Shown: positions 28,908 to 64,000 of the stretch, piece by piece | Numbering within the stretch: position 1 is the first letter of the stretch | Layout of the letters: every line of letters starts with the position of its first letter | Assembly: GCF_037042905.1 (NCBI RefSeq) | Contig: NC_087250.1 | Location: forward strand, 6,202,001 to 6,266,000 | Origin: Lytechinus pictus | Taxonomy: Eukaryota | Length of the DNA: 64,000 nt | Direction: 5' to 3' | Program-made: the position numbers and the translations under genes | The notes under the pieces: generated by a model | What the model was told of the DNA's origin: nothing | The model's input: the letters and a program-made list of their open reading frames with translations, nothing else | Databases searched by the model: none

Positions 28908-30119
28908 GCATTTACCAATAACCTCGCAGACGCTTTCTCGAACGGAGAAAATCTGTTGTCAAAAGCCCTTCATAACAAAACAGCCTTTGTCGAAAATCGG
29001 TGAGTGAAACATCAGTGTAGTCCTAGACTCTGCACAAACGACATATTTGCAATTTTTTCGGTCCGAATCTTGAAACGATGTGCTGTCCCCGTCCACCTAC
29101 TTTCGACCTCTTATCTGTCCATTGTGATTTGACCAACATTTTCAATAGATTCCGAACGGTGCAAAAAGCGTCTGCGAAGTGATGGTAAAAAACGATATTA
29201 ATTAATGACGCTTCATATCACAGTATCATTTGACATCTCACCTACATCTACCGATAATCATGGAATAAGATAAGCATTTCAACCCTCGGTACACATTTCA
29301 AAGCATACGAACGATAAGAAATCACGCAAGCAACCAATTCCGAAATACAACTTTATTTGAAGAAGAAGATGTATCATTTTAAGAGCGTATTAACAAACCG
29401 CTTAACGGTACCTGATTATCTTTGGTGTTTTTGTTATGAAAAATATCAAATTTTTTTTTAGATCTATTTCCAGACGGCATTGAGAAAGTGTTGGTGTTTC
29501 AACAGCCTACACAGACGATTTATCTCACTTGAACCGTATTTTTTTCTTTAATAATGGTCATTCGTACATCATTTCTTTTGTCTTTGACTCTAAATATAAA
29601 TCAACATTATTGTGATATTGAATGATAATAAAAGTAAGTCTTGAAGGTTATGTATGGAAAACCCTAGCTTTTAAGAAGTAAACCAGCCACCCCAAATTAA
29701 ACGATAAATCACAAGGGTCTTTTGTAGATATCCTAAAAGAAATTTGGTCATTAAAAAACAATTAAATAATTAGACTCCAGCAATGGTGAAAAATGGAGCG
29801 AGAATGTCCCGCTTCGCGGGGATTCACGCCAATGCCCGGCGAAGGCAATATCGTTCAGCTTGGTTTTCTTGGAAAGAGCGAGTTATTTTGCATGATAGCG
29901 TTTTTATTAGTACATGAATAATAAGCTCACGAAGTACAAGAAAAAGACAAAATAAGTCAAATTTGAGGTCCAATTATCACTTGTATTCGTCACCTATGTC
30001 ACATTTCTGCCCGAACTGTTCTCGACGGAAATCATGTTTTCTTGCGACAAGGGACCATTTTCTTTTCCACTAATTTCCCTAATCTAAGATTTTTTCCCCT
30101 TCCCTACTGTATTACAGCG

Positions 30120-30423
30120 ATGACAACACAAGGAGCTGTTACCGATGATCTTCTTTCCAAGCTGGCTGAAGACATCGAGACAGGTGAACAGATGGAGGGC
30201 TTAGGACGAACACTAGGGTTCAACGCTGCAGCCATCAATAGATACACAGAAACTAACAGACTAGAAGGACGAGTCACTTGCAAGGGAACACGTGACATGC
30301 TGTTTGACTGGAGACAGACCGTGGAGCCTGCCGACCAGCATCTCAGGCTGAAACAAGCTCTTATTGATGCTCATCTAGTCACGCTTGCTGAAACTCATCT
30401 TAAAGAGACAATAACCACTCCGG
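30120..30423 (+). CDS. NLR exon: N-terminal death domain
   Basis: Acceptor tacag|cg at 30117/30118, ATG at 30120, donor g|gtaggt at 30424. Protein: MTTQGAVTDDLLSKLAEDI...LGRTLGFNAAAINRY...DMLFDWRQ...LKQALIDAHLVTLAE. Confidence 0.9.
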
Positions 30424-31542
30424 GTAGGTTTAAAATTCCCACATTCTATATCATAAAGGTAACAAAAGAATACACATGTGTTTTGTTTTGTTTTGGTGCA
30501 TTTGGTGGATGACTGTTTGCATACTCACTCTGTCTCTCTCTCTCTCTCTCTCTCTCTGCAATCCATCATCAAGTGTCACGTTGTTTGGAAATTAATGAGT
30601 GCTTCTTTTGAAAAGTAACGAAAGCATGCTAAATGTGTGTTAATGTCTATCGTATCAGAAATCAAATTCGTATCAGATATCAAAACAATAAAACAGCATG
30701 TATAAGGAAAATTACATTTTGGGGAAAGGTGCATCATGAAGTAGATTTGTTAACATTTACAGAAACTTTTATTTTTCTATATCAGATGATACTCAAATGC
30801 AAACTTGTATGCTTTACTGAATAAACAAAATTGCATGCGTTTAGATATGCCTGTGGAATATGCGTTGCATATTTTCAAGCTTCCTTGCATACGGTGATAA
30901 TATTTGATTAAAACAACGCTCAATACTATTTTGTTTGCATTTTATGTATATGTTTTTGTCATATATTTGATTTGGAATATGTAATCGAATTGAATGGAAT
31001 TGAACAAAATGACGGATATCATATATTATATAAAGTTAGCAATCTCAAATCTACACACAAAAAAAGAAGCTAATTATACCTGTATCCAAAGAACACAATT
31101 TATTTCATTTGGAGAATTCTATTCCACCTTCTATAAAATTTTGCCGAAAGTTATTTATTGCAGCCTCGAACAAAATAAGGAGTATTATCGAGCAACCAAG
31201 AAACCAAAAAACAATTATCGGTGTCATCTGACAGAGGAGATTTTGCAGCATTCTTCATCATATAAAGAGACACAGTAACAGCTTTTCCAAAATATATTTA
31301 TTTTTTTTCATGACATGCACTCTATACTATCCACTTCAATATTACGCATTTGTCTAGTACTGAGTGTAAATATATTATCTGTGAAAAAAAGGGCTCGATA
31401 CGACGTTTTTTTTTTCACACGGGGTTATCCCTTTGATATGAATTATATCGATTTATCTTAAATCCATTCAAATTCAGATTTATTTATAAATAAAATTACA
31501 TTACAAAATGTATTGAAGTATTACATAAGGTGAGATAAAATT

Positions 31543-37026: not shown

Positions 37027-37349
37027 GTCTGCTTCGATATATATATATACTGTATATACAATTTCTGCCTCCAAATTTTTTTTTTACAAATTATAGATAC
37101 ATAAAAGACAAAGAAAATGCTATGCACGTAACACAACAAAACAATTATAAACATAATTTTTCAGATTATTTTCATTTTTCTCAATATAAAAAAATAGCAT
37201 TGATATCAGAGGTACTTTTGCCATAGTGTTACTCTTTATCAAATTTGCAACAATGCATACTTATCATTTCATTTTGATTTGTATCATTATTTTGAAGGAC
37301 GGTTATCGCATTTATTTTCTTTACTGTTTTTTGTTTCTTATTATTTCAG

Positions 37350-38920
37350 ACATATACAGTGAGAAGATTTCGGAATCTCTGACTGTTCGAAAATGTCGCA
37401 CAATCTTGGAGGATACATACTCGACAGAGCTATGCAAAATTCAAATGAAACCGTGGGACAAAGATGATTATGCAGAGTTTGAAGAAATGCACACCGTTGT
37501 TACTATGGTAAAGAAAGACTCTCATGGAGAAGATATTAAGGAAAAGGAAATACTTAAAGGCTCAGCTGGGAAAATATTTTCAGCAAAAGTAAACGGAAGG
37601 TTTCCACCTCGAATCCTTATTTCGGCTCCAGCAGGACGAGGAAAGACGACAGCTGTGGCTAAGATGGCACACGACTGGATTCACAAAGAACATGGGTCAG
37701 GATTAGAGGACTTGCCACTTCTGTTTGTTGTAAAGTTTCGAAATACAAGTAAAACAACATCGATTGGAGAAGCCATCATATCGCAACTCCTGAGTGATGT
37801 TGATGATCTGACACCAGAGGGGCTAGAAAGTTTTATCAGACAGCATCAGGGAATCTGTCACATTGTACTTGACGGGCTAGATGAGTATGCTGGGATTTCT
37901 TCCACAAGCAACATCTTAAGCATTCTCCAATGGAAAATGTTTCGACAATGTCGAGTTCTTGTTACAACTCGACCTCACCTGGACGACTTTTTCAGTCAAG
38001 GGGATCTACCAAGGGTATACACGAAGATGGTGATCGAAGGCTTCTCACCAGAGAGCTCCCGTAATTACATCGACAAGTTCTTTACTTCCATTAACAAGTC
38101 TATGAGTGCAGATGGTCTGAAGGTTTATCTTGATGAGCAACCATTAATTGAGGAACTGGTAAAAACGCCACTGTTTTGCCTCATGGTTTGTCACCTATGG
38201 TCTGAAGATCCACTTCAAAGTGATATTACAAATCAAACAGCATTACTCGACAAAGTGAACGTGTTTTTAATGCACCATGCGAATGCTCGTTCACCCGGCT
38301 TGATAGAATCAACCCAAAATCTGACCAAAATAATCCTCAAACTTGGTGAAGTTGCTCTAACTGGTTTGCTCAATGATTCTAAGAAGTTAGTATTTAAGTC
38401 TCGTGATTTTCTGAGAATTCCTTCTATCCTGCATATGGCATGTGCCCTTGGAATAGTGTCTAAGACAGTTGTTTCAACCGGACGTCTTCCTCAAACAAGC
38501 GAAACATCTATAACTACTATTGAGTTTTATCACAAACTTGCTCAAGAACATGCAGCTGGGAAGTTCCTTGCCGATGAAACAAATCGCTTTATGTTTGCTT
38601 TCAAGATTAGTAAGATAGACCGAGTACTGCGAAAGATTAACAGAAACATTAGTGAATATGAAAATCTTATTCGCTTTGCTGCTGGTACGAAGAACAACCT
38701 CTGCGTAAGAATAATGGAAACGCTCCTTACAAATAGCTATTTATCTGAGAGTGAGCGATATCGTATTCTCCTCGATTGTTCGTCAGAGTCTGGGGTTAAC
38801 GTTGGGGGTGTGTCATCGTTGATTCGGAGGTGTGTGACGGCACAGAGTATGATCTTAAAGTCACCAACAGTATATACTGCAGTTGGGATGCGAAATCTTC
38901 CTAGTGAGCTGAAACAGAAG
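37350..38920 (+). CDS. NLR exon: NACHT NTPase plus helical/winged-helix domains
   Basis: Acceptor tttcag|ac at 37349/37350, donor aag|gtattc at 38921. Walker A APAGRGKTT, Walker B IVLDGLDEY, sensor-1 VLVTTRP, TPLFCLMVC, and winged-helix EFYHKLAQEHAAG. Confidence 0.95.
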
Positions 38921-39240
38921 GTATTCTAGCCAGATAATGATTTCTAGAGCAATTTACGTGATTTATAATTTTACATATTTTGTTGTCATAAATAACCAAA
39001 AAACATATTGATCGTAAAAAACCAATACAAAATCAACAGTCACTTAAAATATATTCATCTATTCATCACATGGTCAACTTTTATTTAGGCTCATGCAATT
39101 ACGTCTAATAACCAGATAGTACAATAGCCATTTAGTATATATGTCATTTGGTCTAAATGGACTAAGTATTAAATCGTGGAAAATTAATGAAAATGAAATT
39201 GATATCAGACCATCTGGTTATGAGACGAAATGGTGATTAC

Positions 39241-49033: not shown

Positions 49034-52000
49034 CCCGATATTAGTAACCATCTGGAATAAAATTATTGGAAATGGTTTTTCAACTGATTTGAGTAGGTAT
49101 GGGTGTCAACATTTACAAAAAAAAAGTTAGGTAGAATACGGGGTGGGGAAAGTGTTTTTTTTTCAAGGTCAAATGGTCAATGACCTTTTCATATATCCTG
49201 TATAATGGTATCTCTGATATGAAAAGGCGCAGGTTGGCGATCATGGTGTCAAAATGCACAGATTCTTACAAGAAGATCAAATAAAATAAAATTAAGTACC
49301 TATAATGCACATTCACCCTTAAAATTCATGGTCAAAGCCATTCAAAGGTCAATGCCCTTTTATATATTATATACCATACTGTATAACAGTATCTCTGAGA
49401 TGAAAGGGCGCAGGTTGGTGATCTTGGTGTCAAAACGCACAGATTCTTGCAAGAAGATCAAATGAAATAAAATCAAGTACATAGAATTCACATTCACCCA
49501 TTAAATTTCAGGTCAAAGGTCAATGGCCTTTTATACATTATATACCATAATATATAATGATATATCTGAGATGAAAAGGTGCAGGTTGATGGTCTTGGTG
49601 TCAAAATACACAGATTCTTACAGGAAGATTAAATAAAATAAGAATTAAGCACCTTGAATGCTTATTTACCCATAAATTCAAGGTCAAAGCCTTTCAAAGT
49701 CAATGATCTTTTTTTTTTCATTATATATTATACGGTATAATGGTATCTCTGAGATGAAAAGGCACAGGTTGGTGATCTTGGTGTCAAAATGCATAGGTTC
49801 GTACAGGAAGATCAAATAAAATAAAAGTAATCACCTAGAATTCATATTAATCCACAATTCAAGGTCAAATGTCAATTACTTTTTTTTACATATGTATCAT
49901 ATAATATCTCTGAGATAAAACGCTGCATGTTGGTGATCTTGGTGTCAAAAAGCTATTTTTGCAAGAAGATAAAAAGGCACAAAAGAATCATAAAGGATAA
50001 TCATTCACCTTTGAAATCCAAATTCATAGGTCAAAAGTTAATATCTATATATATATATCCTTGCATGACCCCTGACCCCCCCCCCCCCCAAAAAAAAGAG
50101 AAAGTTATCCCATTTGTTCGTATTTTATTTGTGAATAATTTAAAGAAAGATGGGTATTTGTTATGAAAACCTTGCTGTAAAATAATTTCACTTGAATAAG
50201 GATAAAGACCAGGAAAATGTATTTAGGGGTTAGAGGTCACTTAACTATTTCAATAACGTCAGGGGAATTAAGTAATAGGTTGATAACTTGATTGTGGCAT
50301 GTAGGTATAGTGATTCTGATGGGATAAAGAAATTGAAAACGACTGGCCTGCATGGAAAACGAACACAAAATTAATAGTTGAATCCTTGATCAATTCTGCT
50401 GTCAAAATACAAGTTCGAGGTGAAATTGAGATCAAATAACACCTTTTAATATATATTGTAATGCATTGCCAAAAGTGAAAAAAAAATCATTTATATAATT
50501 TGAAAATGGTGAAGTTGTCTGAAGTAGCAGCATTTAGATGTACAATTTATGAATCTAAATCAAGGTACTCATTTATTTTTCTATGTAGCAATATGTCACT
50601 AACCTCAAATGCTACAATGATACTATAAACTACAACTTTATCTTTAAATGGATTGGCCTAACTCTCAGTCAGAGCAAGCATCATCCGAGAACATTTTCGA
50701 ATAGCCAGGGACAGTGATGAAGACTTAAAGTAAGGCATTCATTTGAGTTGCAGCTTTTGTCAAAGAAAAGGATGTTAAGTGTCCCAACTTCAGCAAAGAC
50801 TAATTAAACTCTGAAAGCCCTTCTGACATCTTCAGGTACTTTGATCTGGCCCATTCCATGAAAGCCTAACGTTCTGTCAAGGGTTAGCAAACAAGGATCT
50901 ATATTATTACTGATATGTTGCACAGCTTGATTCTCAAGAACTGGAAGTGGTGCTGTAGGAGTTTTGTTTGTTAGGTCGATAGATGTGTACTTGTAAGCTA
51001 CTATCTCCCTTTGAATTTCATTATTATATGCCTAATTTGTGCATTAATAACAATCAGTTGTTCTGAACCAAATATATGATCCCTTTACAAACTGATACCT
51101 AGCAGAAATAGCATCATGGATGATTTAAGGTTGAAGGAGATATGAAGTTTTTGTCCGGCAGCATTAGCATCTCAAGAGATTTCGGCAACTCGTAATGAGA
51201 GGTAATTAAAATAATAAGGGAATATGATCTTTGCTGAAGTTGAGATACGTAATGTCAGACATTTAATGCCATTTACTATGACAGAAGCTGCAGCTCTAAT
51301 GATGGCCGTTTTTTCATCATCATCCCTCTGCTGTTTTGAAATGCTCTCAGTTGATGCTAGCTGTGACATGATAATTGGACCTATCCTATCCATTTTCAGA
51401 AGATTAAACTAGTAGTTTATAGTATTTATTATAGCATTGAGGTAAGTGACCTATCACTGGAAAGAAAAAGACATGGCATAATTATTGATCAAGGATTCAA
51501 CTTTTAATTTTGTGCTCAAACAGTTTTAGTTGTTTTCCACCAGAATCACTATACCTCCATGCCACAATCAAGTTATCAACTTTGTTTAAACCTAATTTTC
51601 ATTGATGATTTAGAAAGAATTCATATGACCTAGGAGATTACCGTTAACATTTAAAAAGCCAAATAGTTTTGTTAATTCTAATTTTTTGGTATATAATTTC
51701 ATAGTTTTCTCACTTAGCTTTTTGCCCACTTTGTTTAACCAGAGTAACAGGGTATTGCCAAATTTGACTAGTCACTTTTAATTCACATTACACAAAGATT
51801 GGTCTATTTTACATCCACATAATTAATGGCTGGGCTGATAAAATCTTGTATCTCAAAATTTTAAAATTAATTTTGAGGGCAGCCTATAAAAGGCCGTGTT
51901 TTGAAAAATATAGTAATTGTGACAGTCTCATATTGTCTGAAAGCAGTCTCCTAATACCTGTGAAGAACTCGTTTGAGACAAAAGAAGGTTGCTACCCATG

Positions 52001-53148
52001 TTTATAACTCTAAAATCTAGCTTATTCTGAGCTGTCAAAAAAATATTTAAATTTTGAGATAAAGATTTGATCAGCCGCGATATACAAAAAGTGATGCATG
52101 CATTGCATTGTACAGTACATAGACAAAACTTATCTTTACAATAAACCAGTCAAAGTTTATTGTGAATTAAGTTAGCATAGTCCTTGCAAATCCCTTTTAA
52201 AGGTGCACCCTAACATTAATTTTGCACAGGAGATGTTTAAAAAAGTCCATGGTTGGCAAAAAGTTAATCATGCAAAAAGAGCGATCAAATTAAAAAAGTG
52301 CAAAAAGTGGCAAAGCAGTAACTATAACACTTTGTATGTTTTTTTTTTCAGGTACTTCTTCGGGAATACCACCATTGACCTATACCCATAAATACAGTCA
52401 CCATGACCTTCATTATTTCAGAGTGAAATTATGAAACTTCCATGTTTTCATTACAAATTAGCCATCTTTCTTTACATTATTCACAAATAAAATATGATCA
52501 TAAAGGACAAATTTATGGTTATTTTTATGTCATGTTTATATATTGCCTCTGACCTTGCATTTATTCTTTATGCATATTTTTGTCTTGTTTGATCTTGTTT
52601 TACAAATCTTTGCATTTTAGCATCAAGATCATCACCTGCGGTGTTTTATCTCAGAGAAACAATTATATAATGTTAAAAAGGTCATTGACCTTTGACCTTG
52701 AATTGTATGGGTGAATGTCCATTTCATGTACTTCATTTTATTTCATTTGACCTTCTTGCAAGAATCTGTGAGTTTTTACACCAAGATCACCAACCTGCGC
52801 CTTTTTATCTCATAGATACTGTTATACAGCGTGGTATATCATGTATAAAAGGGCATTGACCTTTGAAAGGCTTTGACCTTGAATTTTAAGGGTGAATGTG
52901 CATTATAGGTACTTAATTTTATTCAATTTGATCTTCTTGTAAGAATCTGTGCATTTTGACACCATGATCGCCAACCTGCGCCTTTTCATCTCAGAGATAC
53001 CATTATACAGTATATATGAAAAGGTCATTGACCTTTGACCTTGAAAAAAATCACTTTCCCCACCCCGTATTCTACCTACTTAAATCAGTTGAAAAACCAT
53101 TTCCAATAATTTTATTCCAGATTGGCTCTTTTGGGGTCTAATTTAGGG
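49034..53148. mobile_element. 4.1-kb EnSpm/CMC-like DNA transposon with long TIRs and decayed internal coding remnant
   Basis: CCC...GGG termini with 2-bp AT TSD. ~1.2-kb inverted arms contain ~180-bp tandem units (49050-50330 vs 51530-53121). Minus-strand remnant RDDDEKTAIIRAAASVIVNGIK near 51300. Confidence 0.7.
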
Positions 53149-54155
53149 ATACAATTGTGCAAAATGTAGATACTGTGATTTTTGAAGGGGAAACCCAAAG
53201 TTCAGTGTAGATAGGGCTACTCCGTTTTGCAGTTACTGAAAAGTAATTTTCCCAAAAGAAATGCATAAAACTGGATGTTTCATGTGAAAAAGGGTGGTTC
53301 ACCTACTACTTTTCTGAAAAAGGGTGAAAATTAAAGAAAAAAAAGTCAGATACTGCGGTTTTTCGTAGGGGGGCAGGAATTTTGATTTGCGCCAAAATAA
53401 GGTATGACGACATGAAATGAATCCAGATGTCAATGATGTCATTATCCTACAACTTAGGACTGCATAAAATCCGGTTCAAAACACATTTTCCATTAATTTG
53501 CATTATTATTGTTTAATAAACACTTTTCTATATCGATTCTCAACTTAATTTCATTGAAAAAGGATTTGCAAATATGTTTTCTAAGTCATGTAGGGTTATG
53601 ACATCATTTGCGTCTTGGGTTCATCCACTGCAGTCATGCCTTGCATTTTTATAAATCAAAGTTAACGTCATTGCCAATAATACCTACTGATTATTACAGC
53701 GCGAAAACATACCACATACCACATAAATGAGGTATCAAATTTATTTTGGAGAAGACACTCTTTCTTTCAAAATATATATATGATTATGCGTCCATGGCAT
53801 TTTTTTTTTATTGGGGATGTTCGAGGTGTCATTTTTTCACTCACACGTAATAATAGTACATGGGTAAATGAATGAGAATACTACGATTAGATTAAACAAT
53901 ATACAATCAGAAAAAAAAAATAACAGAAGAAGCTTTGTATTGCAAGGCGGTTTTACTGATTTTTCTGCTAATCGAAAGACGTACACATTCCTATGATAAA
54001 AAATGAAATAAATGAATCGACACTCCGTTTTCCAAATAGTTAAAGAAACCATATTGATTGATACATTAAATACTTTCATAAATAAACTTATCCGAATATT
54101 TCTCCTCCCTACGCTGATTATTTAATTCACCTTTTTTCTTGTATCTCCACAACAG

Positions 54156-54472
54156 GTTGTTCATGTGCAGTTCGAGGAGTCAATCCTGGCAACCGCTGTG
54201 ACAGATAGACTATGGTCCTGTCTTAAATCATTTCCAGAACTAGGTTACCTCACCATCTCAGACTCATCTCTCATTTTCCCTTCATCTCCTCCTGAACTAC
54301 CATCCGTCATAAAGCTATCAGTCAATAAAGTGACGTTACAATGCTACGAAGGGTTGATCTCATCACTACCTGGGTTGCAAGATATCGATGTCGAAGATGC
54401 AGCTAGAGATGACTTTGTTGAATATGTCGAATCTTCAACACGTTTGACATCATTGCAACGACTTGAGATAAA
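54156..54472 (+). CDS. NLR LRR cassette 1, long exon
   Basis: Boundaries aacag|gtt and aa|gtgagg. Protein: VVHVQFEES...LWSCLKSFPELGYLTISDS...LISSLPGLQDIDV...LTSLQRLEIK. Confidence 0.9.
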
Positions 54473-55204
54473 GTGAGGGTTCATGTTCTTAACTCATTAT
54501 TTGCCGAGGATGTTCATTGTTACCATGCCCGGATGCAATCCCCCTCCCGATTATGTGTTCAAAGCGCTCTTATATTAATTCGATACTGTCAAGCGCCCCG
54601 CCCTTTCCTTTATAACGGTCATTTATAATCGGATATCACGCTGAATGTAATATGTCGGCCTATTATAATATCCCAAACTGCTTAAAAAACCTTTTTAGGT
54701 AAACTGTAATGAGATCACAATACGCAGTAGGTAACACGTATTAAAAAACGTAGATCCAGTTAAACTGAATTCCTTTTCCATCGCTCACATTTACACCGAT
54801 ACAGGATGTGCAGGCAGGAGGCAAAATTATTCGGCAAATATGTTGAGCAAAGTGGTCGAGGTACTTGAACGGATTTTCCTCGCTCGTAGTCAAAATTCAT
54901 CTGGACAGCTGTTTGGCTGCATATTATATATAAAAAAGGGAGCAATAAAGTATATCATTACAAATGTATACGTCTATTACATCACAAAGTCCCCTCCCCC
55001 TCTCTCTCTTTAACTGGTCATAATTTTAACATTAGAACATCGCAAGAGCAGCTCATTACAATATTTGTCACAATAATATTGTCGTTACCTATAATTATGA
55101 TAATAAAAAGAACTTTAAACCTAAGGCACTTGGTTCACATCTGAATGATGTATTATGGTTTATTATCATTCCCGTTATGAATTTCTATTTTCTATGCAAT
55201 TCAG

Positions 55205-55253
55205 AACTCTTGATAGATGGCAATTCGACTTTGATACCGCGAAAGGTGTTCAG
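55205..55253 (+). CDS. NLR LRR cassette 1, 49-nt exon
   Basis: Boundaries ttcag|a and cag|gtgagc. Protein (K)TLDRWQFDFDTAKGVQ; phase 2 to phase 0. Confidence 0.85.
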
Positions 55254-56484
55254 GTGAGCATAGGTGTATTATGTGGTTGTATATTATTTGTGTAACTTGC
55301 TTGTTGCTATATAACTGTAACATTATCAGGGGCGGATCTAGCTTTCACAAATAGAAGGGGGATATTTGTGATTATTAAAAAAAATCTTAATCATTTTGTT
55401 TTCCTCCTTAATGAAATAAAACAACGTTTGCTTCTCTATATATTCATTACTGTCCCAGGGGGAATCGGTACTTAGAAAAGAAAATCCGTGACATTGATAT
55501 ACATAGCATATGATTAAACTGTCCCTTCTAAATGTCATACTTTATTTACCAAGTTGCCGATTCGAAATTTAAATGGCCTCACCTATCTCAATTTTTAAAC
55601 AGCCAGAAATTTCCGGTTACTTCTATATAATTATTTCACTTTTTTAGCTGAATTGAAAATCGGACATTCAAAGCACCGTTTGAAATCACAAAGAGGATAA
55701 AAATCACACTTAACAAATAATTCGAGCGTGAAGCATGAGTAGATTTAAAAGAAAAATCAGTTATGAATATTGAATATTTAAGCATATTTTTTTAACAGAA
55801 AGTAATAACAAGTCGAATGCATCTGGCTGTCTGGCATGCATTATGCGATATTGTAACAGTGCTGACTTTGAAAACAGTTATTGAAAAATTATTCACAAAA
55901 GAAAGCTTTAATATGATAATAAAATAATATTTCCGTTGACCCAACATGATCTTTGACCAAAATCATGTGACCTAAGACGTGTTCAAAACATACTTGATAA
56001 CCCTTATGTATATGTTTAATGTGTAGATCCATAATTGTTCAAAGTTATGATGCCAATTAGAAAATACCCCCAACACGGCCAAAGTTTATTGACCCTAAAT
56101 GACCTTTGATCTCCGTCATGTGACCTGAAACTTTTACATGATATTTATGAATGCATGGTTATTCTTATGTTCAAGTTTCGTGAACTAGATTCCTAAAATG
56201 TCAAAGTTATAATGAAAATTTCACAAATCCCCCCAACATATTCAAAGTTCGTTGACATTGGCCATGTGACACTATTACCCTTTGTCTTATTTCAAGAAAT
56301 TGGTCCATATACTTTCTAAGTTATGACGACATTTCCAAAAATTCAATATAGCAACAGTGCTGACATTGAAAACAGCTGTTGAATAATTGTTCTCAAAGAA
56401 AACATTCATATGATAATAAGATACTATGTTCATGTTCAAACACCGTAATTCTTACCCAGCTTTTCTATTTTTATTTCCCTTCAG

Positions 56485-56786
56485 ATAAAAAAATGTCATC
56501 TGTCTTCTGAGATGACTGCTGGAATGTGGTCCTGTTTGAGATCGCTCACGTCACTGAACCATCTCACCATCTTAGACTCATCGCTTAGTTTCTCTGTATC
56601 AAGTCCTGAGCTACCGTCCGTCACAAACCTATCAGCCAATAAAGTGACGTCACAATGTTATAAAGGTTTGATCTCATCACTACCGGGGTTGCGAGATATC
56701 GATGTCCAAGATGCAGCGAGAGATGCCTTTGTTGAAATGGTAAAGTCTTCAACACGTTTGACATCATTGCAACGACTTGAGATAAA
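56485..56786 (+). CDS. NLR LRR cassette 2, long exon
   Basis: Boundaries ttcag|ata and aa|gtgagt. Protein: IKKCHLSSEMTAGMWSCLRSLTSLNHLTILDS...LTSLQRLEIK. Confidence 0.9.
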
Positions 56787-58648
56787 GTGAGTAAATGCTT
56801 TTAGCTGCTTTTTGCCGAAGATTTCCATTCTTACAATGGCCATATGCAAACTGCTTTCCTAGTTAGTTGCTTAAAGGGCTCCTATATGTCCTATATTAAC
56901 ACTGGATGTATTTTGTAGGCTTATTGTAATATTCTAAACTAATAAAACATTTTTGGTAAACGGTAATGAGATAATAATACGTAGTAACTTACACTTGGTG
57001 CAGTTTCCAAAACAACACGTAATTCCTGTTTCCTGCCAAGCTAAGCTTACTATCATTTATAACGATACAGGATGAAGGAGACGAATGATTCGGAAAATAT
57101 GTTGAGCAAAGTGGTCAAGGTCCTTTTAATTAAAGATTTTTACTCATCCTTTGTTGGCTCTCATAATCGAAAGTCACCTGGACAGATGGTGGGTAGGAAT
57201 TTTGGTATTAAAGCCAAATAAAATATAATTAACAAAAATCGGGGCCATAAGGTGTTTCATTACAAACTTATAAGTCTATATCATCATAAAATCCTTGTCC
57301 CCCGGGCAGCCCTTTCTCAAATATCAAGATACGGGATTATAGTTCAAAATATAATTGCAGTTCTACAATACAGCCTGGATTTAGAGAGCTAATTATTTTA
57401 TCTATCTAATGAGCGAGATGGTTGAATGTATGAATTATATTAATACTAGCCTAAGCTGCGCTTGATGACAGTTCATATGCATATCTGGATTGTACAAAAC
57501 TTCTGAGACTGTGTTGGTTGTTTGGAGAGTGTCAAAGGAGTCGTATTTGCGGGAAACCTGGCAAAATTATAATCGTTTGTCATAATGATATTTTTTAAAG
57601 GTGCACTTACTTCATAATGTAGATATCGTTTGCCTTCTCGCTTTACTCCGCTGTAAACAACGAATACCATAGTTCATACTAGCAATTTGGATAAAATAGT
57701 CTATAAAGTAGTATTGATCCTTTAAGAGTTTAAATGAAGAAAATAGGTGAAAATTCCCTTATTTCCATACACCACGCTGAATACAGAACGCACTCCATGG
57801 GCTCATCGTGGACCTAGTAGGTCCATGGGCTCAATAAGTGACTAGCCTGCTTTCGGTTATTTACAAGTTCAGCAGTAAGTAATTGAAGCTGCTTTCAGAA
57901 TGGTTTTCTATCATCAATACTCCCAGACATGTACCTTCTCTTTAAATCAGTTATTCTTAATCTATATTGCAATGACGTGAAGACAATTTTAAGTGATTAT
58001 TGCAGATGACCATTCACAACACTATTCATAAATGGTAATTGGTATTAAAGTTAAAAAGAGCCATATTTTTCAGTATTTTTTGTGTCAATTTCGAATGAAG
58101 TGTAAAGTTGCTTTTCTTATTACCTCCATGGCAACGGCGATTTATTTTTTGCTTCAAGAAACATGTGTTCTGTTTTGATAATGATTATGATAATAATGAT
58201 ACGAGGTAGATATTGTTTATATCGTGATGAGACTTATATATATTTCTGAGCATTATGATAGCGATAATAACTGTGATTTGTAATGTAATAATTATGATTG
58301 CCAAATACCTCTTTTATCAAGGATTTGTATGCGGTAGATACTTATCTGTTTACGGCGCCAGAGTTGAAAATTATCATCATAGAATTGCCGATAGACACCC
58401 GCAAAACACACACAAAAGGTCCCCCCCCCTCTTTACTTGTTATGATCTCAATGTTAGAACATCACAAGAGAAACTCTTTGCTGCAGTGCTTGTCACAATA
58501 ATATTGTTGTTACTCATGGTTATTATTTAATGACTTTAAAGCGTATAATAATTTTCGAGGCACCTAGGCCACATCTGAATGATGTTTCATGGCTAATTAT
58601 CATTTCCGTTACAAAATTATATTTTCTCTAATTTTCTCTACGACACAG

Positions 58649-58697
58649 ATCTCTTGATAAATGGCAATTCGACTTTGATACCAGCTCAGGTGTTAAG
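58649..58697 (+). CDS. NLR LRR cassette 2, 49-nt exon
   Basis: Boundaries cacag|a and aag|gtaagc. Protein (K)SLDKWQFDFDTSSGVK. Confidence 0.85.
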
Positions 58698-58809
58698 GTA
58701 AGCTTAGCTGTAATATGTTGCTGTATATTAATTTTGTAAATTGTTGGTTGCTATATAAAACTTAACGTTATCAGGGCCGGATCCAGCTTTCACCAATGGA
58801 AGGGGGAGG

Positions 58810-59179
58810 GAATATTTTCCATATGTTCCCACATGATATTTGCTTCCTTTAGGAACTTAATAGCTCCTGGTACCTGTCTGCATGCTTGAGTACCCACCTT
58901 AGATCGCATTGTTCCACTGTGGTGACACTTTGTTTCATACAGTGGGTCAGTGGTTGGTGTCGTGTCGTGGGTGCTCAAGCATGCAGACAGGGTATATTTA
59001 TGTATATTCATTTTATTGATATATTTATACTACATGTATGTATTATTTTGATGTATTGTATTTATAGTTTCTGAATGATTGTTATTTTTTTTATGCACTT
59101 TTTGTTAAGAAGTCCGAGGACAATTTTAGTGTTTTTTATACATGACAATAAAATGAATTGAATTGAATTGAATTGAATT
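58810..59179 (+). mobile_element. 5'-truncated LINE 3' tail ending in (GAATT)n
   Basis: Absent from the paralogous introns of cassettes 1 and 3. Ends aataaaat(gaatt)5. Confidence 0.55.
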
Positions 59180-60217
59180 CACAACTAAAGACTGAACTGT
59201 TACGCACATCTTAACTTTATTAATGCGAGCGGGAAGAGCCAGCTCATTTGTTTCATGAATTTAGATCTTGCAATTAAATATTTTGAAGAATTATGTTATA
59301 ATGATCAAGATATATCAAAATAAACAATATATGAGTGCGCTAAGTTCTGGCAGAGAATTTTCATATACTGACTTTAAAGTGGACCTGTTTACAACTGTTT
59401 GCAGTGACTCATTTTAAAGAAAATTTAAACAAGTAGATTAGGTGAAAAATTACATAATATGAGACGAACAAAATAGATATGAATTTTCAAAACTTTCAAC
59501 AGGAATTGATTTAGCTCTGGATACTTCAGATTGGTCCCATAGGAGATGTTATAGTGATGTAATGCGAGGACTATTTTTCAATTCAATACAGCATAACAAA
59601 ATAGTTAAAATGCCATCATTTGAAAAGACTAATTCATTTTTTTTTCTTCCATAATGAAATCAGACAACGTATGCTACTCTCTTCATGTATTTATAGCTGT
59701 CCCAGCCTCCCAGGGGAAATCGGTACTAAGAAAAAGAAAATCCGTGATATTAATCTGCACGGTATACGAGAAAACTATCCCTTCTATATGTCATAATTTA
59801 TTTACCATGTTGCCGATTCGAAATTTAAATGGTCTTACCTATCTCAGTTTTAAAACAGCCAGCAATTTTTAATAGCTTTTCCAGTTACTTTAAAACGTTC
59901 CCCTATGTATATAATTATTTCACAAGTTTATAGCTGATTTGAAAATCGAACATTCTATGCACCGTTTGAAATCGGGAAGAGGATAAAAATCTCACTTAAT
60001 AAATAATTCCAGCGTGAAGCATGAGTAGATTTAAAGAAAAAAAATATGTAATGAATATTAAATATTTAAACATATTTTTAACAGTAAACATGATATTATA
60101 TCGATTTACAGTATTCATGGTTTATTTATTCCAAAAACAAAACACATTTGGCAGCCAATGGCTGAAAAAATTGTGTTTACAAATGGATCATACATACACA
60201 CACACACACGTACACAA

Positions 60218-60258
<41 letters not shown>

Positions 60259-61301
60259 CAAATCCAAAGTAATACACTTTGTAATAATAGACCTCGTAGA
60301 ATAATCGTCGATATTATAACCATGTAAAGTCAATATTGATAGATCAGATAAATAGAAAACGCGATTAAAGTTTGATAAATTGATTTTTTTCTTTATTAAC
60401 TTTACCCTTTTTCCGTTGAAAGTAGTAGATAGATTACCTAATCATTATTTGCCAAAAATCGCTCAAAAGGAAATAACGATCAATTGAAAGCCAGTGCATT
60501 GAATACAAAATTTAGCAATCAATTAATTAATTAATACAAAGCTGAAGTATTATATTATGAATTGTTGAGTAGGAAAATGAAAAAACAATGAAGTTTTAAC
60601 AGATTAATCAGCAGTAATAACAAGCGGAACGCCTTTCGCTGTCTCGCATGCATTATGCGATTCAATGTGGTAACAGTGCTGACTTTGAAAACAGCTATTG
60701 AATAATTAATCACAAAAGAAGGCATTCATATGATAATAAAATTAGATGTCCATTGACACAACACGACCTTTAATCATAATAATGTGACCTAAGATGTGTT
60801 CAAAACATACTTCATGACCCTTGTGTATATGTTTTTTGTGTAGATCCATAAACTTTCAAAGTTATGATGTCAATGCAAAAATACCCCCAACACGGCCTAA
60901 GTTTATTGACCCTAAATGACCTTTGATCTCCGTCATGTGACCTGAAACTTTTACATGATATTTATGAATGCATGGTTATTCTTATGTTTAAGTTTCGTGA
61001 ACTAGATTCCTAAAATGTCAAAGTTATAATGAAAATTCCACAAATCCCCCCAACATATTCAAAGTTCGTTGACATTGGTCATGTGAAACTATTACCCTTT
61101 GTTTTATTTCAAGAAATTGGTCCATATACTTTCTAAGTTATGACGACATTTCCAAAAATTCAATATAGCAACAGTGCTGACATTGAAAACAGCTGTTGAA
61201 TAATTGTTCTCAAAGAAAACATTCATATGATAATAAGATACTATGTTCATGTTCAAACACCGTAATTCTTACCCAGCTTTTCTATTTTTATTTCCCTTCA
61301 G

Positions 61302-61603
61302 ATAAAAAAATGTCATCTGTCTTCTGAGATGACTGCTGGAATGTGGTCCTGTTTGAGATCGCTCACCTCACTGAACCATCTTACCATCTCAGACTCATCG
61401 CTCAGTTTCTCTCTATCACCTCCTGAGCTACCGTCCGTCACAAACCTATCAGTCAATAAAGTGACGTTACAATGCTACGAAGGGTTGATCTCATCACTAC
61501 CTGGGTTGCAAGATATCGATGTCCAAGATGCAGCTAGAGATGACTTTGTTGAATATGTCGAATCTTCAACACGTTTGACATCATTGCAACGACTTGAGAT
61601 AAA
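61302..61603 (+). CDS. NLR LRR cassette 3, long exon (recombinant of cassettes 2 and 1)
   Basis: Boundaries ttcag|ata and aa|gtgagg. The 5' half matches cassette 2 and the 3' half matches cassette 1. Confidence 0.9.
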
Positions 61604-62335
61604 GTGAGGGTTCATGTTCTTAACTCATTATTTGCCGAGGATGTTCATTGTTACCATGCCCGGATGCAATCCCCCTCCCGATTATGTGTTCAAAGCGCTC
61701 TTATATTAATTCGATACTGTCAAGCGCCCCGCCCTTTCCTTTATAACGGTCATTTATAATCGGATATCACGCTGAATGTAATATGTCGGCCTATTATAAT
61801 ATCCCAAACTGCTTAAAAAACCTTTTTAGGTAAACTGTTATGAGATCACAATACGTAGTAGGTAACACGTATTAAAAAACGTAGATCCAGTTAAACTGAA
61901 TTCCTTTTCCATCGCTCACATTTACACCGATACAGGATGTGCAGGCAGGAGGCAAAATTATTCGGCAAATATGTTGAGCAAAGTGGTCGAGGTACTTGAA
62001 CGGATTTTCCTCGCTCGTAGTCAAAATTCATCTGGACAGCTGTTTGGCTGCATATTATATATAAAAAAGGGAGCAATAAAGTATATCATTACAAATATAT
62101 ACGTCTATTACATCACAAAGTCCCCTCCCCCTCTCTCTCTTTAACTGGTCATAATTTTAACATTAGAACATCGCAAGAGCAGCTCATTACAATATTTGTC
62201 ACAATAATATTGTCGTTACCTATAATTATGATAATAAAAAGAACTTTAAACCTAAGGCACTTGGTTCACATCTGAATGATGTATTATGGTTTATTATCAT
62301 TCCCGTTATGAATTTCTATTTTCTATGCAATTCAG

Positions 62336-62384
62336 AACTCTTGATAGATGGCAATTCGACTTTGATACCGCGAAAGGTGTTCAG
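62336..62384 (+). CDS. NLR LRR cassette 3, 49-nt exon
   Basis: Identical to 55205-55253, with the same splice sites. Confidence 0.85.
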
Positions 62385-62624
62385 GTGAGCATAGGTGTAT
62401 TATGTGGTTGTATATTATTTGTGTAACTTGCTTGTTGCTATATAACTGTAACATTATCAGGGGCGGATCTAGCTTTCACAAATAGAAGGGGGATATTTGT
62501 GATTATTAAAAAAATCTTAATCATTTTGTTTTCCTCCTTAATGAAATAAAACAACGTTTGCTTCTCTATATATTCATTACTGTCCCAGGGGGAATCGGTA
62601 CTTAGAAAAGAAAATCCGTGACAT

Positions 62625-64000
62625 TGATTGATTGATTGATTGCATTTATTCTTTTTCATTCCAAATTTTAACAAAAGTTACAATGTATAGTAAAACACAA
62701 AATATAATATACAGAAATGAAAAAAGGGAACCCACTGGAAAGCAAAGCTTGTTATTATGGGTTCCCTGCAATAAATAGTTGATTAAAGTATGTAATTGAT
62801 CAGTGAAATTCAAATCGTAAATTAAAAAGGTTTATACAATGAAAAAGAATACTACTGGGGTCAAGCTTTTTATGTGTACTGTGTTAAAATTGACAAAAAA
62901 TATTATATTATACCCCTGCTGTATAAAAACAAACCATGAGTTCAGGAGTGTATGAACAAACAATCACTTGGAAAAGACAGAACGAATACTAAAAACAAAA
63001 CAAAGACAAAAACAAAAACAAAGAAGGCACGCAAACCACAACAGGACAAGACAGCAAAAAAGGGAACAGAAACAAAACAAAACACACTACAAAACATAGA
63101 CAAACAGGAAAATAAGAAAAGCAACAGAACTAGACATTAAAGGTGATAGGAAGAGAGAGAGAACAAAAGAAATATAAGAGGGAGGAGGAAAGAGAAGAAA
63201 GAAGAAAATAAGAAGGGAAGAAGAAGAAGATGTGGTAGCTGCTTACACAGAAATGTTTGAGTTCTGGGGTTTATACCCAAGAATAAGAATTTTCTTTAAC
63301 CCTCGACTGAAACTTAAATGTGTTGGTTTGTTACGTAATGATTCTGTAAGAGAGTTCCAAAGTTTGATACCTGTAAAAATAAATGTTTTATTCAAAAGGA
63401 TGGTTCTAGCTCTTGGTGGATGAAAGAGCCCGGCGGACCTAGTAGGATAATGATGAATATCGACATTTTTAGTAAACATGGAATAAAATATATTTGGAAG
63501 TTCATTTTTATCTAAACTATACATGAGTTTTCCGAGATTGTATCGATACAAGTCACCAATCTTCAAAATATTATATTTATAGAAAAGTTCGTCAGTGTGT
63601 GAACGAAAATCTGCATGACAAATAATACGAATAGCCTTTTTCTGCAAAAGTAAAATTCTGTTCAGGAGGCAGTCAGCACAATTCCCCCATGCTGTTATAC
63701 CGTAGTTTAAATGAGGCAGGATCAAAGTTGAATACAAATTAAATAGTATATGAGTGGGAAAGAAAAATTTTACTTTGTTTATAATACCAATATTTCTCGA
63801 AATAATTTTACAAATGTGATCAACGTGTTCTTTCCAGGAAAGATTATTATCAATGGTTACCCCAAGAAATTTAGTACTGCCAACTCTTTGTAAATTAGTA
63901 TTTTCGAAAATTATATTACCTGGAAGTTCATCTATGATATTACTAAAGAGCATATAATTTGTTTTTTGGAGATTAAGGGATAGTTTATTAGCTTTGATCC
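62625..64000 (-). mobile_element. Young LINE (CR1/L2 group), 3' portion, continues beyond the window
   Basis: Open ORF2 frame, ~600-bp 3' UTR and (CAAT)n tail. Absent from the paralogous site at ~55498. Confidence 0.92.
63243..63998 (-). CDS. LINE ORF2 reverse transcriptase C-terminal region (partial)
   Basis: IKANKLSLNLQKTNYMLF...KFLGVTIDNNLSWKEHV...LYSTLILPHLNYGITAWG...GIKLWNSL. The frame is open to the window edge. Confidence 0.9.
   Translation of the reverse strand: MKANKLSLNLQKTNYMLFSNIIDELPGNIIFENTNLQRVGSTKFLGVTIDNNLSWKEHVDHICKIISRNIGIINKVKFFFPTHILFNLYSTLILPHLNYGITAWGNCADCLLNRILLLQKKAIRIICHADFRSHTDELFYKYNILKIGDLYRYNLGKLMYSLDKNELPNIFYSMFTKNVDIHHYPTRSAGLFHPPRARTILLNKTFIFTGIKLWNSLTESLRNKPTHLSFSRGLKKILILGYKPQNSNISV

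Follow-up and report, generated by a model that had tools for sequence, protein, structure and literature searches.

Sea urchins hold some of the largest NLR repertoires of any animals, and to our knowledge the construction and diversification of the repeat regions of these receptors have been little described. Here we analyze a stretch of 64,000 nucleotides (nt) of the Lytechinus pictus genome (contig NC_087250.1, positions 6,202,001 to 6,266,000), hereafter the window, in whose coordinates all positions are given. Its right-hand part is best explained as the C-terminal leucine-rich repeat (LRR) part of a Death-NACHT-LRR gene of the NLR type, built of tandem two-exon modules (cassettes 1, 2 and 3), the third of which is a mosaic of stretches shared with cassette 2 and with cassette 1.

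The gene and its cassette exons

The gene is represented among the proteins searched by P0001 (731 amino acids (aa), named at its source 'protein NLRC5-like [Lytechinus pictus]'), which maps to 30120-30422, 37349-38923 and 54150-54473 and joins the Death, NACHT and A1 exons (Table 1); exon B1 and cassettes 2 and 3 are absent from it. According to this mapping, the gene lies on the plus strand, with a 15-kilobase (kb) intron between the NACHT exon and A1. Pfam recognizes the NACHT domain (PF05729) in the open frame 37190-38929 (E = 2.8e-15, 57 bits against a cut-off of 26.7), and gives a weak match to Death in the frame 29967-30512 (E = 0.0011, 19.5 bits, under the cut-off of 22.6); a precomputed PF00531 assignment exists for two Strongylocentrotus purpuratus relatives, P0027 and P0075. 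The NACHT exon has 151 related proteins at E <= 0.001. All the named relatives among the 120 matches listed belong to L. pictus, L. variegatus or S. purpuratus, and the closest NACHT proteins from these three species are, among the matches listed, 63-100% identical. The G+C content of the window is 33-37%, and it contains no N.

Table 1. Exons, patches and insertion located in the window, with their coordinates.
Feature	Position	Strand	Remarks
First coding exon, Death-like domain	30120..30423	+	ATG at 30120; P0001 residues 1-101 at 100%; donor read
NACHT exon, Walker A GRGKTT	37350..38920	+	Pfam NACHT; 100% identity to P0001; ends in phase 0
Exon A1, first-cassette-type head and short-cassette tail	54156..54472	+	317 nt; 302 nt from the in-phase acceptor at 54171
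Exon B1, 'a-type' (TLDRWQFDFDTAKGVQ)	55205..55253	+	49 nt
Exon A2, short cassette	56485..56786	+	302 nt
Exon B2, 'b-type' (SLDKWQFDFDTSSGVK)	58649..58697	+	49 nt
Patch P1	60878..61366	+	98.8% to cassette 2 56061-56549; 6 differences in 489 nt
Exon A3, mosaic	61302..61603	+	302 nt; cassette 2-like to 61366, older 61367-61445, cassette 1-like from 61446
Zone between the patches	61367..61445	+	79 nt; 7 differences from cassette 2 within the first 54 nt
Patch P2	61446..62628	+	99.6% to cassette 1 54315-55498; 4 substitutions and one 1-nt indel in 1184 columns
Exon B3	62336..62384	+	49 nt; same sequence as B1
High-copy LINE-like insertion	62629..64000	-	ends the homology of cassette 3 to both other cassettes

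A tblastn search with the product of cassette 1 finds three copies of the large exon (A) and three of the 49-nt exon (B) in the window, and no further copy of either. AG acceptors and GT donors are present on all six cassette exons. Exon A starts in phase 0 and stops two bases into a codon, which exon B fills before ending again in phase 0. The sequence-only reading from which this work started had taken each pair as a 302+49-nt unit of 117 aa with phase-0 borders; this is correct for A2+B2 and A3+B3, which measure 117 codons with phase 0 in and out, but not for cassette 1, where the acceptor at 54156, used by P0001 and kept in paralogues ('KQK/VVHVQ', the slash marking the exon border), gives a 317-nt A1 and, together with B1, 122 codons. 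Since the end of the NACHT exon, the entry of A and the exit of B are all in phase 0, cassettes can indeed be gained, lost or skipped in frame. The protein models of paralogues read B straight into the next A ('GVQ/I[ST]KC'), with up to 7 modules in one protein (P0121) or more (P0122, 1983 aa).

The donors of the A exons (AAA/GTGAG; 54472-54476, 56786-56790 and 61603-61607) all place an in-frame TGA one base past the exon. The C-terminus of P0001, '...LQRLEIK', arises where its model runs one base beyond the A1 donor (AAA/GTGAGG) into TGA, and P0001, P0007 and P0123 all end in '...EIK', as unspliced read-through of an A donor would, which suggests either genuine early termination or a systematic truncation of the models from a missed 49-nt exon. 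The approximately 110 nt that follow each B exon (55254-55365, 58698-58810 and 62385-62496) are conserved like exons, with about 85% identity between cassettes 1 and 2. Translation continued past the B donor yields a hydrophobic, Cys-rich tail of 13 aa, whose stop stands at the same place in the three cassettes, and the models of two paralogues, P0005 and P0014, finish in a similar manner. The conserved stretch may serve as an alternative final exon or in splicing, as an element.

Mosaic structure of cassette 3

The three modules are overall about 80-90% identical in their exons and about 50-80% in their introns, and appear from this divergence to be old duplicates between which recent exchange later took place. 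Self-comparison of the window pairs 54249-55498 with 61380-62628 (98.7%) and 55801-56887 with 60613-61706 (90.5%), the identity between A1 and A2 being 81%. The stretch 60613-60877 resembles the intron before A2 at about 83% identity (44 differing columns, comprising 39 substitutions and one 5-nt indel). Patch P1, which follows, covers the intron end and the initial 65 nt of A3; its left limit lies 424 nt upstream of the exon, and its last 263 nt show no difference from cassette 2. Among the 7 sites at which 61367-61420 differs from cassette 2, four match cassette 1 and three are private to cassette 3, and this short segment is more diverged than P1 (Fisher p = 7e-5). Cassette 3 encodes here the family-consensus 'SFSLSPPELPSV', and it is cassette 2 that is derived. 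The remaining 25 nt of the zone (61421-61445), with the conserved 'ELPSV' codons, carry no difference from cassette 2. The motif 'ctatcag' (54315-54321 and 61446-61452) opens patch P2, which holds the A tail, the intron, exon B and 244 nt further. Over this span the identity to cassette 2 is 88-90% for the exonic part and 50-80% for the intronic part. To the left of the junction, the identity between cassettes 1 and 3 is about 54-64%.

A count of the informative positions in exon A also shows the change of partner: before 61446, cassette 3 shares 47 of them with cassette 2, 4 with cassette 1 and 3 with neither, and from there on it shares 1 with cassette 2 and 16 with cassette 1 (Fisher p = 5.2e-11). 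Accordingly, the mosaic proposed in the sequence-only reading is confirmed by both the self-comparison and this test, as is the near-identity to cassette 1 downstream of ctatcag. Its claim that cassette 3 matches cassette 2 upstream of this point is true of 60878-61366, but the match is bounded, with about 83% identity further upstream and the 7 differences in 61367-61420. Likewise, of the exchange that it had placed inside the coding exon, a recent inter-cassette exchange stands, but not one clean crossover, 79 nt of older sequence lying between the patches.

Across the cassettes exons are better conserved than introns, and the ratio of non-synonymous to synonymous substitution rates (dN/dS) between cassettes is 0.4-0.65 on small counts; with the same small counts, no cassette-cassette comparison gave the dN/dS above 1 that would indicate positive selection.

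Contigs of four coded sequencing runs, all of them short, were placed on the window, parts of which are uncovered; the four belong to a set of seven runs, none of which is recorded as RNA. One of them (X1 record 5) covers the B2-A3 intron (58665-58853 and 59190-60181) with 28 differing letters, so this intron is present in another data set at about 2% divergence. In this record 58853 and 59190 are bridged by 16 letters only, so that the B2-A3 intron may be polymorphic for an indel of about 320 nt, or the shortening may be a mapping effect (59139-59189 is flagged as a skipped repeat). A stretch of about 0.5 kb of the same intron (60087-60613) has no counterpart in the B1-A2 intron and contains a compound (CA)n(TA)n microsatellite at 60197-60260. 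The contigs of the four runs also reveal, in the introns upstream of A2 and A3, interspersed repeats of very high copy number (55998-56311 and 60708-61021), and numerous contigs end loosely at 56088-56340 and 60672-60897. P1 begins on its left side (56061/60878) near the boundary of one of these repeats, and direct repeats of about 83-94 nt surround the area (55848-55930/56346-56427 and 60660-60753/61158-61250). Contig joints such as that from 55876 to 60897 were discarded, their sides measuring just 20-27 letters within high-copy repeats.

The right edge of cassette 3

The homology of cassette 3 to cassettes 1 and 2 ends at 62628, whereas these two remain homologous to each other past the equivalent point (55380-55801 vs 59623-60087). 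At the junction stands (ATTG)5 (62623-62642), and beyond it an insertion resembling a long interspersed nuclear element (LINE), with a minus-strand open frame (63243-63998, 251 aa) that is unbroken to the window end and from which the element may be a young copy. Pfam found no domain in this frame, and the nearest named Atlas cluster of the element, 'Reverse transcriptase family protein' (score 0.93), is a lead only. The depth of the contigs is very high at 62592-62905, and loose ends of low agreement pile up at 62624-62629 in three of the four runs (X1, X2 and X5); together, this looks like the terminus of a high-copy element. Over the final 121 nt before the transposon edge cassettes 1 and 3 are 100% identical, and since the identity is perfect up to the edge, the insertion is most simply, and probably, younger than the exchange. 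The right end of P2 lies hidden by the insertion and the window end.

Modules in the paralogue family

Exon A3 matched 71 longer relatives, with bit scores of up to 758 for a 100-aa query, from which it follows that many repeats are present per protein; the best identity is 85% among these proteins, and 32 proteins of similar length reach at most 80%, over 61% of the query. Cassette arrays of the same kind occur in paralogues of L. pictus, L. variegatus and S. purpuratus. Modules come in a long form (184-190 aa), a short form (117 aa) and a distinct terminal form ('...DLVYLIECCRHVK...'), which in P0121 and P0125 of L. pictus are arranged as long...long, short 'a', short 'b' and terminal. The B exons follow two patterns, TLD.W.FDFD.A.GVQ (a-type) and SLDKWQFDF.TSSG.K (b-type); in the window the b-type is seen in cassette 2, and the a-type in cassettes 1 and 3, in tail and B exon alike. 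The head of cassette 3 is that of a normal short module (93% to module 2 of P0125). The head of cassette 1 is that of a first module after NACHT (87% to P0005, 85% to P0003 and 80% to P0007), and its tail most resembles those of short a-type modules (83% to module 5 of P0121). A first-module pattern, which matched 21 of the approximately 120 NACHT proteins fetched, allowed the first-cassette tails to be compared: 19 are long or otherwise built, one is truncated and one, that of P0001, is short.

Neighboring modules within one protein are often 91-96% identical and carry B exons of different type, as in modules 2/3 of P0125 (107/117 identical) and modules 1/2 (175/184) and 3/4 (182/190) of P0121, so that module exchange or duplication appears, from these comparisons, to be general in the family. 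No long first-cassette tail and no terminal module is found in the window at E <= 1e-3, and the gene therefore probably continues past 64000.

Probable exchange between modules

We consider it very probable that non-allelic homologous recombination between modules underlies the mosaic as a whole. Three old duplicate modules would have come first, followed by recent swaps of this kind, of which at least two would have touched cassette 3: one giving the 0.49-kb patch common to cassette 2 (intron end and first 65 nt of A3), the other the patch of at least 1.18 kb common to cassette 1 (A tail, intron, B and beyond). Their most likely form would be gene conversion in short patches, acting over the 4.8 and 7.1 kb that separate the cassettes, and for two bounded exchanges of this type as the source of the cassette 3 mosaic, judged from the sequence, we put the chances at about even; both the mechanism and the direction of transfer are what we infer from the patches. 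Bounded patches are the signature of conversion, and at each switch of partner the identity changes sharply, P1 being 98.8% identical to cassette 2 against about 83% upstream of it, and P2 99.6% identical to cassette 1 against 50-90% for cassette 2. The outcome, the usual one in tandem arrays of LRR modules, would be a partial homogenization alongside novel pairings of head and tail; these stay in frame, since the junction joins homologous positions in the third beta-strand of the module. A single multi-template repair accounting for both patches is excluded, as older sequence persists between them at 61367-61445.

Several observations weigh against two bounded conversions in cassette 3. Conversion is told from crossover by both ends of a tract, and the right end of P2 is not seen, being cut at 62629; with a transposon following 62628, P2 may be the first part of a far longer duplication. 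The divergences of P1 and P2 (1.2% vs 0.4%) do not differ significantly (p = 0.09), and their ends lie less than 80 nt apart in cassette 3, which is somewhat unexpected for independent events. Furthermore, the boundary of P2 is within at most 8 nt of the point where cassette 1 changes from first-cassette to short-cassette type, a coincidence by which cassette 1, not cassette 3, may be the recipient; alternatively, an exchange with cassette 1 may be able to start only where short-module homology starts. B1 and cassettes 2 and 3 occur in no protein model of the collection searched. Finally, X1 record 6, which lies on 61297-61551 with 9 of 255 letters differing and a further 28 letters matching nothing in the window, may be an allele, a paralogue or spliced RNA, its match starting 5 nt before the A3 acceptor with 5 nt equal to the end of B1/B3.

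A serious alternative, if a less likely one, is an unequal crossover with a shift of two cassettes, in which the original third cassette aligned with cassette 1 on the sister chromatid or homologue and the crossing occurred at the head/tail boundary. Cassette 3 would then be its own head joined to a cassette 1 tail, P1 would be a separate conversion, and a 7.1-kb tandem duplication would repeat 54315-61445 from 61446 on, so that the B1-A2 intron and cassette 2 would appear a second time past the LINE, where the window no longer reaches. This is the best account of an identity that reaches the transposon edge, P2 probably going on behind it, and it agrees with a junction in register and in frame, with an offset of 7131 nt that is unchanged over 1184 nt, introns included, and with the complete identity of the last 121 nt, where no older divergence anchors the end of a conversion tract; the near-identical neighbors in P0121 (175/184 and 182/190) show whole-module duplication in the family. 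Nevertheless, the predicted copy falls outside the view, as the window ends within the LINE, and no protein model with a second cassette 2-like exon was found. The crossover would moreover lie at the extreme left of about 150 nt of good exon homology, and a second event would still be required for P1.

It is also conceivable, if unlikely, that cassette 1 was the recipient, a long first cassette having lost its tail, intron and B exon to a copy of those of cassette 3. A single event would in this case cover both the hybrid cassette 1 and P2. The short tail on a first cassette, found in P0001 alone of the 21 proteins, the union of a head like those of first-cassette paralogues with a tail like those of short a-type modules, and the lack of any long-tail remnant in the window all argue for it, as does the normal composition of cassette 3, whose head, a-type tail and B exon are as in modules of P0121 and P0125. 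At 54393/61524, the sole exonic difference within P2, cassette 3 agrees with cassette 2 and with the listed paralogue modules, and cassette 1 is derived. The sequence-only reading regarded cassette 3 as a fresh chimera; its mosaic is borne out, but either cassette may be the chimera, cassette 3 having the usual short-cassette build and cassette 1 being the odd one (1 in 21). On the other hand, cassettes 2 and 3 stand in the order b-then-a, opposite to the a-then-b of P0121 and P0125, and the order of cassette 1 (a-tail) and cassette 2 (b) fits an older deletion producing cassette 1. The left anchor of such a transfer would be only a 66-nt island at 83% identity, and the comparison draws on just 21 of about 120 NACHT proteins matched by the pattern.

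That cassette 3, or its cassette 1-like part, is an artefact of assembly or polishing and not present in the animal seems improbable, even though immune multigene clusters in highly heterozygous genomes are prone to such errors, the contigs of the four runs are short, with 63 to 696 records per run fitting two places in the window, and cassettes 2 and 3 are lacking from the gene models. The join is homologous and in frame, and to its left, where cassettes 1 and 3 have about 54-64% identity, there is no long repeat that could be collapsed; the window holds no N. The two copies differ at 5 scattered places, and three private substitutions of cassette 3 lie near the junction. The indel pattern of the 1.18-kb segment is wholly cassette 1-like in its intron, a pattern that would not result from mis-polishing a copy of about 75% identity, and an X1 contig spans 61297-61551 at 96.5% identity, its origin being ambiguous. 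A single unequal crossover between cassettes 2 and 1 inside exon A, by which the sequence-only reading had explained cassette 3, is highly improbable and is disfavored here: cassette 3 is indeed cassette 2-like on the left and cassette 1-like on the right, with the main switch at 61446-61452 and close to 99% identity on both sides near the junction, but such an event would give the order cassette 1, hybrid, cassette 2 and cannot yield a hybrid that stands last in the array, it would fill the upstream intron with cassette 2 identity where about 83% is observed beyond 60878, the left limit of P1, and it leaves the older zone with 7 differences from cassette 2 clustered in 61367-61420, left of the junction.

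Predicted LRR character of the modules

In standard searches the cassettes are hardly recognizable as LRRs, and this weighs against their assignment. Pfam LRR_4 (E = 0.026) and LRR_14 (E = 0.035) match the window under the cut-off, no Pfam LRR family is found at E <= 0.01 in five multi-module proteins, and a profile made from the module alignment has no match at E <= 1 among PDB sequences. Matches of module proteins to EF_assoc_2, Jak1_Phl, RRM_9 and others were disregarded as spurious and below threshold. An AlphaFold model was obtained for P0123, which has three short modules, from an alignment of 37 sequences (predicted local distance difference test, pLDDT, 67.5; predicted template modeling score, pTM, 0.41). 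It displays regular strand-helix turns spaced by 28, 22, 23 and 26 residues, according to which one module would comprise about five LRR turns and a short strand contributed by exon B, and it places the P2 junction at the third beta-strand of the module. A Foldseek search with this model returned 17 matches at E <= 0.001, with TM-scores of only about 0.25; those listed are LRR proteins, a chain of the SCMC complex (8h93_A) and NLRC4 being at the top, with NAIP, NLRP, CARMIL and ribonuclease inhibitor also among them. The LRR nature of the cassettes is therefore supported by comparison of the modeled fold, and not by sequence searches. The assignment to an NLR-type gene in the sequence-only reading is borne out by the NACHT match (E = 2.8e-15) and by the resemblance of the predicted cassette fold to the LRR domains of NLRC4, NAIP, NLRP and ribonuclease inhibitor; that the cassette region binds a ligand is an assumption.

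The repeat regions of P0121, P0125, P0123 and P0122 are likewise invisible to standard domain annotation, and several multi-module relatives are annotated as 'uncharacterized proteins' lacking NACHT, possibly as long introns split gene models.

Other features of the window

The 15-kb intron that separates A1 from the NACHT exon contains about 3.6 tandem copies of a 171-nt repeat (49198-49950, in the area 49050-50040) and, some 3 kb downstream (52561-53122), an inverted copy of this repeat at 75-83% identity.

Relation to known systems

Mosaics of repeated elements or LRR cassettes, which the present gene recalls, are the source of diversity in two other kinds of immune genes, the sea-urchin SpTransformer (Sp185/333) genes and the lamprey VLR. 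The former, for which recombination and microsatellites have reportedly been treated in published work (PMC3091723, PMC8634487), are unrelated to it in sequence and are not LRR genes. In the VLR, LRR cassettes are inserted somatically and have neither introns nor splice sites, unlike the urchin cassette exons, all six of which possess normal AG/GT sites, with phase-0 borders to the cassettes; there is no sign of somatic assembly. The exchange described here is ordinary evolution of repeat arrays, with no new mechanism, and an expected event in a known kind of gene.

Closer parallels are found among NLR-type receptors. The evolution of plant NLRs is reported to be driven by unequal crossing-over, ectopic recombination and gene conversion (PMC3782705), and plant NBS-LRR genes likewise show a repeat region with mosaic identity between units or paralogues; they differ in that the urchin units are intron-bounded two-exon modules, accompanied by NACHT and not by NB-ARC, with swaps within one gene. 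The zebrafish NLR-B30.2 family is, like that of the urchin, a large lineage-specific animal NLR family in which the NACHT exon is apart from the LRR exons. According to its description (Howe et al. 2016, PMC4852459), NACHT is on one large exon and the LRRs are on separate single exons, a variable LRR type is present in 0 to 6 copies, gene conversion with tracts of limited length affects portions of genes, exon shuffling also occurs, and the LRRs are judged by the authors too invariant to be the recognition part. By comparison, the urchin module has two exons (at least 302 + 49 nt) and about five predicted turns, in contrast to one LRR per exon in zebrafish, the urchin gene lacks B30.2, and the conversion proposed here would take place between modules of one gene. 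A study of sponge NLRs also mentions LRRs missed by sequence searches (PMC3879445), as in the urchin gene. For S. purpuratus, 206 NLRs are given in PMC3782705, citing Hibino 2006 and Rast 2006, and by its sequence the gene studied here belongs to this expanded sea-urchin repertoire. In the open-access literature searched, neither modules of two exons nor exchange within a gene were found described for the NLRs of urchins, and a search there for work on the L. pictus genome and its NLRs yielded no relevant paper.

The locus thus offers a coordinate-exact case of in-frame, intron-bounded LRR modules with recent exchange within one gene and a hybrid first module. With a 49-nt exon and repeats that Pfam does not see, such genes are probably truncated by automatic models, and the model of the gene studied here terminates in a stop codon overlapping the A1 splice donor. 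If the number and order of cassettes prove polymorphic, this would be an animal counterpart of the LRR shuffling of plant R genes. We may further speculate, although we regard it as distinctly unlikely, that the head/tail boundary of exon A ('ELPSV' codons, third beta-strand) is a preferred point of exchange for the module halves of echinoid NLRs. In that event both the hybrid of cassette 1 and the mosaic of cassette 3 would have arisen there, individuals would differ in the number, order and combinations of their modules, and the repertoire of the population would be much larger than that of a single genome.

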